A stretch of 32,000 bases of DNA, taken from NCBI RefSeq assembly GCF_029232205.1, contig NZ_CP107255.1, positions 900,001-932,000 of the forward strand, in the 5' to 3' direction. Numbering within the stretch: position 1 is the first letter of the stretch; each line of letters begins with the position of its first letter. Made by a program: the position numbers and the translations under genes. Positions 15,337 through 15,411 of this stretch are shown here, in pieces. This DNA is from Candidatus Saccharimonadota bacterium (GTDB lineage: Archaea; Nanohalarchaeota; Nanosalinia; Nanosalinales; Nanosalinaceae). The notes under the pieces were generated by a model. The model did not search any database and had not been told where the DNA came from. It saw nothing but the letters and a program-made list of their open reading frames with translations.

Positions 15337-15411
15337 GGGCCCATAGCTCAGCTTGGACAGAGCAACCGGCTTCTAACCGGTAGGTCCAGGGTTCAAATCC
15401 CTGTGGGTCCG
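15337..15411 (+). tRNA. tRNA-Arg(TCT) carrying a G3:U70 pair
   Basis: Acceptor GGGCCCA/TGGGTCC. D-loop with A20. Anticodon stem ACCGG/CCGGT with loop CTTCTAA. T-arm CAGGG-TTCAAAT-CCCTG. Discriminator G. Confidence 0.9.

Follow-up and report, generated by a model that had tools for sequence, protein, structure and literature searches.

An arginine tRNA that carries the alanine pair G3:U70 across much of the Nanohaloarchaeota

The G3:U70 wobble pair of the acceptor stem is the textbook tRNA identity mark: single, transplantable and universal, it stands for alanine. In a nanohaloarchaeal genome this pair is found in an arginine tRNA with the anticodon UCU, which raises the question of whether alanyl-tRNA synthetase (AlaRS) is kept off the molecule, and of what the codons that it reads mean. 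The gene lies in a stretch of 32,000 nt (the window), positions 900,001-932,000 of a complete, single-contig 1.05-Mb genome (45% G+C; 99.95% completeness).

The tRNA-Arg(UCU) gene (15337..15411, + strand) is 75 nt long and intron-less and does not encode CCA. ARAGORN and RF00005 give the same cloverleaf coordinates, the latter over its full length with 67.6 bits against a threshold of 29 bits. The acceptor stem is GGGCCCA/UGGGUCC, nucleotides 1-7 being paired with 66-72 in the covariance-model alignment, and the parse of this stem places G3 (15339, + strand) opposite U70 (15408, + strand), exactly as proposed from the letters alone; a shifted 3:70 register produced by some other fold is ruled out by the same alignment. 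The gene has the combination of G3:U70, G1:C72 and G2:C71 expected of an AlaRS substrate. The parse also puts G73 at the discriminator position (15411, + strand), where both tRNA-Ala genes of the genome have A73; G73 is a candidate anti-determinant against AlaRS. The anticodon UCU (15372..15374, + strand; ARAGORN and sequence) supplies the arginine determinants C35 and U36, and the D loop GGACAGAGC contains A20 (15357, + strand), which serves as an arginine determinant in several systems, E. coli among them; the arginine identity set includes A20 and either A or G at position 73 (PMC9976931). The earlier observation that A20, C35 and U36 are kept and that G73 takes the place of A73 is thus borne out, and the loss of arginine elements that would mark a hybrid identity is not seen. 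A TATA-like box, TATTTAAG (15302..15309, + strand), lies 28 nt 5' of the mature end; its role as a putative promoter is suggested by a similar TTTAAG/TTTAAA motif at equal spacing before many other tRNA genes of the genome. A T run directly 3' of the gene (15419..15423, + strand) is a likely terminator.

Across the whole 1.05-Mb genome, neither ARAGORN nor RF00005 found a second tRNA-Arg(UCU) or any tRNA-Arg(CCU), and G3:U70 occurs only in tRNA-Ala(GGC), tRNA-Ala(UGC) and this tRNA-Arg(UCU), the sole decoder of AGA and AGG. The frequent use of AGA, first noticed in the window, holds genome-wide: in ORFs of at least 200 aa it makes up 26 per 1000 codons, and AGA and AGG together 34 per 1000, or 73% of arginine codons. 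As the single AGR decoder, tRNA-Arg(UCU) is therefore the main arginine adaptor of the cell. The sequence-only reading had also raised the case of an unexpressed pseudogene accompanied by a canonical tRNA-Arg(UCU). This has next to no probability, being contradicted by the single decoder seen by two detectors in a complete genome, by a perfect cloverleaf flanked by a promoter-like box and a terminator-like T run, and by 100% identity of the orthologues in two congeners (those of three other genera are 92-93% identical). The gene is probably genuine, expressed and essential in this nanohaloarchaeon.

Its surroundings have an arginine theme. An arginase-family ORF (PF00491; 15896-16672, + strand) is followed by argS (16685..18355, + strand), 1.3 kb 3' of the tRNA, which encodes a 556-aa arginyl-tRNA synthetase (ArgRS) with an N-terminal D-loop-reading domain. 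The block as a whole spans 15337-18355 on the + strand; tblastn finds the linkage of tRNA, arginase-like gene and argS in many genera of the family, and the conserved order is RNase P RNA, tRNA-Arg(UCU), arginase-family gene, argS. The archaeal RNase P RNA (RF00373; 14713-15092, + strand; full model, E = 2e-20) lies between the 23S rRNA and tRNA-Arg(UCU) genes and is missing from default Rfam annotation because its 74.4 bits fall below the 84-bit gathering score. The rRNA genes of the window are unlinked: 16S (6417-7890) is separated from 23S (11567-14513) by 3.7 kb that contain long ORFs (167-332 aa), and tRNA-Ala(UGC) is on the opposite strand just upstream of 23S; no 5S rRNA was found within the window. 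Four nanohaloarchaeal genomes have a second, divergent argS-like gene, 29-51% identical (loci L058 in G007:C16, L052 in G051:C3, L068 in G059:C97 and L072 in G060:C7). Directly after it come a tRNA-Arg(UCG) and a tRNA-Arg(UCU) gene in tandem; this additional UCU copy has G3:U70 as well, and the ensemble may be an acquired cassette of a synthetase with its tRNAs.

The arginine tRNA resembles the tRNA-Ala(UGC) of the same window (11013..11086, - strand; ARAGORN and acceptor parse), whose acceptor stem is GGGCCCU/AGGGUCC with A73. Six of the seven acceptor pairs are identical (G1:C72, G2:C71, G3:U70 and pairs 4-6), pair 7:66 being A:U in the arginine tRNA and U:A in the alanine tRNA; the 17-nt T arm is the same in both, and the variable loops read AGGTC and AGGCC, respectively. 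These shared features had all been described correctly, but the conclusion that the tRNA has a tRNA-Ala-like body stands for the acceptor and T arms and fails for the D arm. The latter is of arginine type, matching tRNA-Arg(UCG) at 20 of 21 positions and tRNA-Ala, whose D arm is UAGUUCAG...GGCAGAAC without A20, at 15 of 21. The T arm is shared with tRNA-Arg(GCG) as well, and outside the anticodon arm the nearest paralogue is tRNA-Arg(UCG) (87.7% identity), with tRNA-Ala(UGC) at 84.2%. An alanine-type gene would have an NGC anticodon, here UGC in tRNA-Ala and UCU in tRNA-Arg, together with an alanine-type D arm and A73.

Descent from a remodelled tRNA-Ala, or a large overwrite by gene conversion from one, would explain why, in this genus and in one other genome, G007, the acceptor and T arms hardly differ from those of tRNA-Ala(UGC), and would suit the distance of about 4 kb that separates the two genes across the phylum. 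The acceptor/T-arm half of the G007 gene equals the tRNA-Ala(UGC) of the family except at N73, a comparison made with the genes of G000 (this genome), G016 and G020, as the tRNA-Ala(UGC) of G007 itself was not retrieved. Such an origin is nevertheless very improbable. The phylum orthologues form a continuous tRNA-Arg(UCU) series; the alanine-like T stem CAGGG/CCCUG is limited to this genus and one other, whereas most orthologues, including most of those with G3:U70, have the non-alanine stem GAGGG/CCCUC, so that G3:U70 is older than the alanine-like T arm. Together with the arginine-type D arm and the conserved argS block, these orthologues leave a tRNA-Ala origin unsupported, and birth by remodelling of the anticodon arm, one of three explanations offered at the outset, is at odds with the arginine character of the D arm, A20, G73, the orthologues and the argS synteny alike. 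At most, a short T-arm conversion in two genera is plausible; the present data group the tRNA-Arg(UCU) of the phylum with tRNA-Arg(UCG).

A search with a pattern combining the arginine D arm and the UCU loop, followed by folding of the loci, recovered 59 tRNA-Arg(UCU) genes from 53 of 70 Nanohaloarchaeota genomes. G2:C71/G3:U70 with G73 is present in 44 of the 59 genes, representing 40 of the 53 genomes in which the gene was found, at least 18 genera and three families. The other genes have G2:U71 (7), A2:U71 (6), G2:U71 with A3:U70 (1) or a G3/G70 mismatch (1). The wobble pair is kept on several backgrounds whose anticodon and T stems have diverged through compensatory changes; one tRNA-Arg(UCG) and some of the tRNA-Arg(CCU) genes of the phylum have it too. 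Every tRNA-Arg examined in the phylum has G73, and all tRNA-Ala genes seen there combine G3:U70 with A73. The sharpest case is family f3 (G026, G029 and G031), in which tRNA-Ala(UGC) and tRNA-Arg(UCU) have all seven acceptor pairs in common (GGGCCCG/CGGGUCC) and N73, A in one and G in the other, is the only difference at the acceptor end. G3:U70 thus appears to be an inherited trait of the tRNA-Arg(UCU) of this phylum, neither a recent accident nor a trace of tRNA-Ala. An intron (33-182 nt) interrupts most of the tRNA-Arg(UCU) genes in the phylum (loci L018-L084) at the canonical 37/38 site; it is missing from the window copy and from the genes of several other genera, which indicates that it was lost in at least some lineages.

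Beyond the Nanohaloarchaeota, the pair was sought in one genome per prokaryote species with a pattern for intron-less tRNA-Arg(YCU) genes ending in U70-C71-C72-G73, which matched at least 120 loci. All of the matches listed are archaeal, 70 with A3:U70 and 48 with G3:U70; among those listed, the G3:U70 genes outside the Nanohaloarchaeota come from Woese-, Aenigmat-, Micr- and Iainarchaeota, from Bathyarchaeia and from one Halorubrum. The same pattern left open at 3:70, which covers intron-less genes with one D-arm pattern and includes the seed genomes, gave group counts for G3:U70 of 9/18 in Aenigmatarchaeota (one of the nine from a seed genome), 3/31 in the phylum Nanoarchaeota (two of the three from a seed genome), 1/60 in Halobacteria (the match being the seed), 0/16 in Thermoproteota and 0/18 among the valid matches in Micrarchaeota, where four further matches were false, with an intron after the T loop. 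By these counts two DPANN phyla typically have the trait, a third group has it sporadically, and in the remaining groups sampled it is rare or was not found. The possibility that a G3:U70 tRNA-Arg is simply routine in archaea thus holds in part: the pair is common in the two phyla, while the four other groups have it rarely or gave no example; as a statement about all archaea it is ruled out by 1/60, 0/16, 0/18 and 3/31.

The canonical halobacterial tRNA-Arg(UCU) shares with its nanohaloarchaeal counterpart the D arm (UAGCUCAG...GGAYAGAGC, with A20), the CUUCUAA anticodon loop, G73, G1:C72, length and fold, and differs in the pairs near the acceptor end: G3:C70 in 47 of 60 genes and G2:U71 in 12, against G3:U70 in 44 of 59 in Nanohaloarchaeota. 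The one halobacterial G3:U70 gene, that of Halorubrum rutilum CGMCC 1.12554 (L166, NZ_JBHTBL010000011.1), has the acceptor stem GGGCACG/CGUGUCC with G73, unlike the 59 other Halobacteria; as a cultured haloarchaeon, this species would be convenient for testing the effect of the pair. Two soda-lake MAGs labelled 'Aenigmatarchaeota' (G350 and G381; loci L327 and L328) also have G3:U70 in tRNA-Arg(UCU), and their AlaRS is 55% identical to the nanohaloarchaeal enzyme, compared with 34-49% for other Aenigmatarchaeota and 38-42% for Halobacteria. Because closeness of AlaRS and G3:U70 are shared, the trait may have been inherited from an ancestor common to the Nanohaloarchaeota and these MAGs.

The alternative states of the phylum could point to positive selection of the pair for another purpose: ArgRS or tRNA processing could require U70 or U71, paired with G or A, or this U could help to keep another synthetase off, and G3:U70 would then be just one of the permitted forms. 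[quoted passage not shown] Halobacteria, for comparison, have G:C at both pairs in 47 of 60. Selection for a weak pair has no counterpart in any known archaeal ArgRS determinant at 2:71 or 3:70, although archaeal identity sets are poorly known (PMC9976931), and the counts are inflated by shared ancestry. We consider it possible but doubtful; it would be compatible with faithful arginylation of the tRNA.

What AGA and AGG mean can be read from about 380-410 pairs of reciprocal-best orthologues (about 62% identity), obtained by comparing this genome with an 800-kb stretch from each of three relatives. In comparisons with the two relatives lacking G3:U70, G016 and G019, AGA and AGG align with arginine in 59-70% of cases and CGN codons in 69-71%, and more than half of the arginine codons matched to AGR are CGN. 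Where AGR sites are replaced, the substitutes are K, E, Q and S; alanine is not among the five commonest partners. AGR accounts for 70-71% of the codons at arginine sites conserved between genera. By these alignments AGR codes for arginine in this genome; a non-standard reading at conserved sites was considered and does not fit the arginine-like partners or the lack of AGR avoidance. Nor did a screen that covered every archaeal assembly at NCBI report any reassignment of AGR (preprint 10.64898/2026.04.02.715157).

Mischarging with alanine might be expected to move critical arginines to CGN codons. An Akashi-type test gave odds ratios for CGN enrichment at conserved arginine sites of 1.08-1.21 in this genome and 1.13 in G012, both with G3:U70, and of 1.29 in G016 (A2:U71) and 1.35 in G019 (G2:U71), both without it. 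By these ratios there is no sign of selection moving critical arginines off AGR in the G3:U70 lineages: the test, which set two genomes against two, drew on 800 kb from each of three relatives and is blind to rare misincorporation, found no excess avoidance of AGR and hence no codon-usage cost of the pair. Low-level Arg/Ala ambiguity, the third of the explanations first offered, leaves no trace in codon usage among these four genomes, within the same blindness to rare events.

The AlaRS of this genome is a full-length enzyme of archaeal type (930 aa). By alignment, the two residues with which the Archaeoglobus fulgidus enzyme contacts G3:U70, an Asn and an acidic residue, are retained: the residues aligned with Asn359 and Gly361 are unchanged and Asp450 is replaced by Glu, as in P. 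horikoshii (residue roles from PMC6055181 and PMC11392972). The position of A. fulgidus Tyr95, which contacts A73, is occupied by Glu in this enzyme, by Leu in Halobacteria and P. horikoshii, and by Phe, Tyr or His in Aenigmatarchaeota. Four nanohaloarchaeal genera, some with G3:U70 and some lacking it, agree at all four positions (N359, D450, G361 and Y95), and in Aenigmatarchaeota and Halobacteria the residue at the Y95 position does not track the state of the tRNA (a mis-called halobacterial ORF, G308, was left out). A73 itself is specifically contacted in the A. fulgidus complex, any substitution of A73 lowers alanylation by the N. equitans AlaRS (PMC11392972), and A73 is conserved in all known cytosolic tRNA-Ala (PMC9976931).

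The explanation that we favour, and hold to be probable, is a faithful, inherited G3:U70 tRNA-Arg(UCU) from which AlaRS is kept off mainly by G73. ArgRS would charge the tRNA with arginine through A20, C35, U36 and G73, and AGA and AGG would be decoded as arginine; AlaRS, apparently still a normal reader of G3:U70, would be excluded mainly because G73 replaces A73, perhaps with help from arginine-type elements elsewhere in the tRNA and from ArgRS as a kinetic competitor. We infer both that AlaRS is blocked by these elements and that mischarging is too low to matter. By itself, G3:U70 apparently fails to give a tRNA alanine identity here, and if our explanation holds, the pair would therefore be necessary, yet not sufficient, for alanine identity in these archaea. 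Of the explanations offered by the sequence-only reading, the remaining one, an AlaRS that relies on additional or negative determinants, fits best: G3:U70 with G73 is the majority state of the phylum, N73 is the only difference in family f3, and AGR stands for arginine.

Several observations weigh against it. Halobacterial tRNA-Arg has G73 as well, yet G3:U70 was seen there in 1 of 60 genes, which suggests that G73 may not suffice in every lineage to render the pair harmless. The residue at the Tyr95 position, a contact of A73 in A. fulgidus, varies among archaea and does not follow the state of the tRNA. In bacteria and eukaryotes, a transplanted G3:U70 is generally enough for alanylation (PMC7954030, PMC9976931), and a yeast tRNA-Pro with G3:U70 is reported to mistranslate despite the competing ProRS (PMC5389508).

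Such sufficiency in most tested systems also speaks for a dual identity, in which AlaRS mischarges part of the tRNA-Arg(UCU) pool and the product, Ala-tRNA-Arg, is either removed by a trans-editing deacylase or accepted, the symbiont with its small population living with a statistical proteome. The identical acceptor helices of family f3, the canonical look of AlaRS and an AlaX-like protein encoded in the genome would suit it, and vertebrates offer a precedent, their tRNA-Thr with G4:U69 being reported to receive alanine that ATD and ThrRS then remove (PMC7302879, PMC9976931). The codon load speaks against it, as about 3.4% of all codons and 70% of the arginine sites conserved between genera depend on this tRNA, and so do the arginine-like substitution spectrum and AGR avoidance no greater than in lineages without G3:U70. 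We know of no deacylase specific for Ala-tRNA-Arg. A dual identity is on the whole unlikely. Less likely again is a departure of a more far-reaching kind: either a rewired alanine identity in the Nanohaloarchaeota and part of the Aenigmatarchaeota, with A73 or elements outside the acceptor helix co-equal to G3:U70, or a dual-charged tRNA that places regulated or edited low levels of alanine at AGR. If true, either would be a natural, phylum-wide departure from the sufficiency of G3:U70.

The alanine pair on the main arginine tRNA of a phylum, with the code intact, makes these archaea a natural system for finding what blocks AlaRS, and the f3 comparison narrows the search to one nucleotide, N73. 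The archaeal alanine identity set is essentially uncharted (PMC9976931, Table 1), and tRNAs have been suggested to avoid lying one mutation away from G3:U70 (PMC7954030). Outside subscription-only papers, we found no description of G3:U70 in an archaeal or DPANN tRNA-Arg in the full-text literature. For genome annotation the case is a caution: G3:U70 by itself is no basis for calling codon reassignment or mistranslation. It may also offer a route to tRNAs orthogonal to AlaRS.

The arginine tRNA of a phylum thus bears the alanine mark, yet the code appears intact, which sets it apart from the known systems that it resembles. Vertebrate tRNA-Thr and tRNA-Cys with G4:U69 are also natural, conserved non-alanine tRNAs with a wobble pair of the AlaRS type; there the pair is shifted, mischarging is reported to have been demonstrated and ATD and ThrRS provide clearance (PMC7302879, PMC8583063), whereas here the pair is at the canonical 3:70 position. 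A putative bacterial tRNA(CCG), proposed to turn CGG from arginine to alanine, shares an arginine-box anticodon and G3:U70 (preprint 10.64898/2026.04.02.715157); it has lost A20 and its codon is inferred to mean alanine, whereas tRNA-Arg(UCU) keeps A20, C35, U36 and G73, and AGR is read as arginine. A further parallel is yeast tRNA-Pro(UGG) C70U, one of the spontaneous or engineered mistranslating tRNAs: a non-alanine tRNA that has G3:U70 and keeps its own anticodon. G3:U70 tRNAs of this type are reported to be rare alleles, buffered by wild-type copies, that insert alanine at a few percent (PMC5389508, PMC7954030); the nanohaloarchaeal form, by contrast, is the only copy, fixed across the phylum, and its codons are read as arginine.
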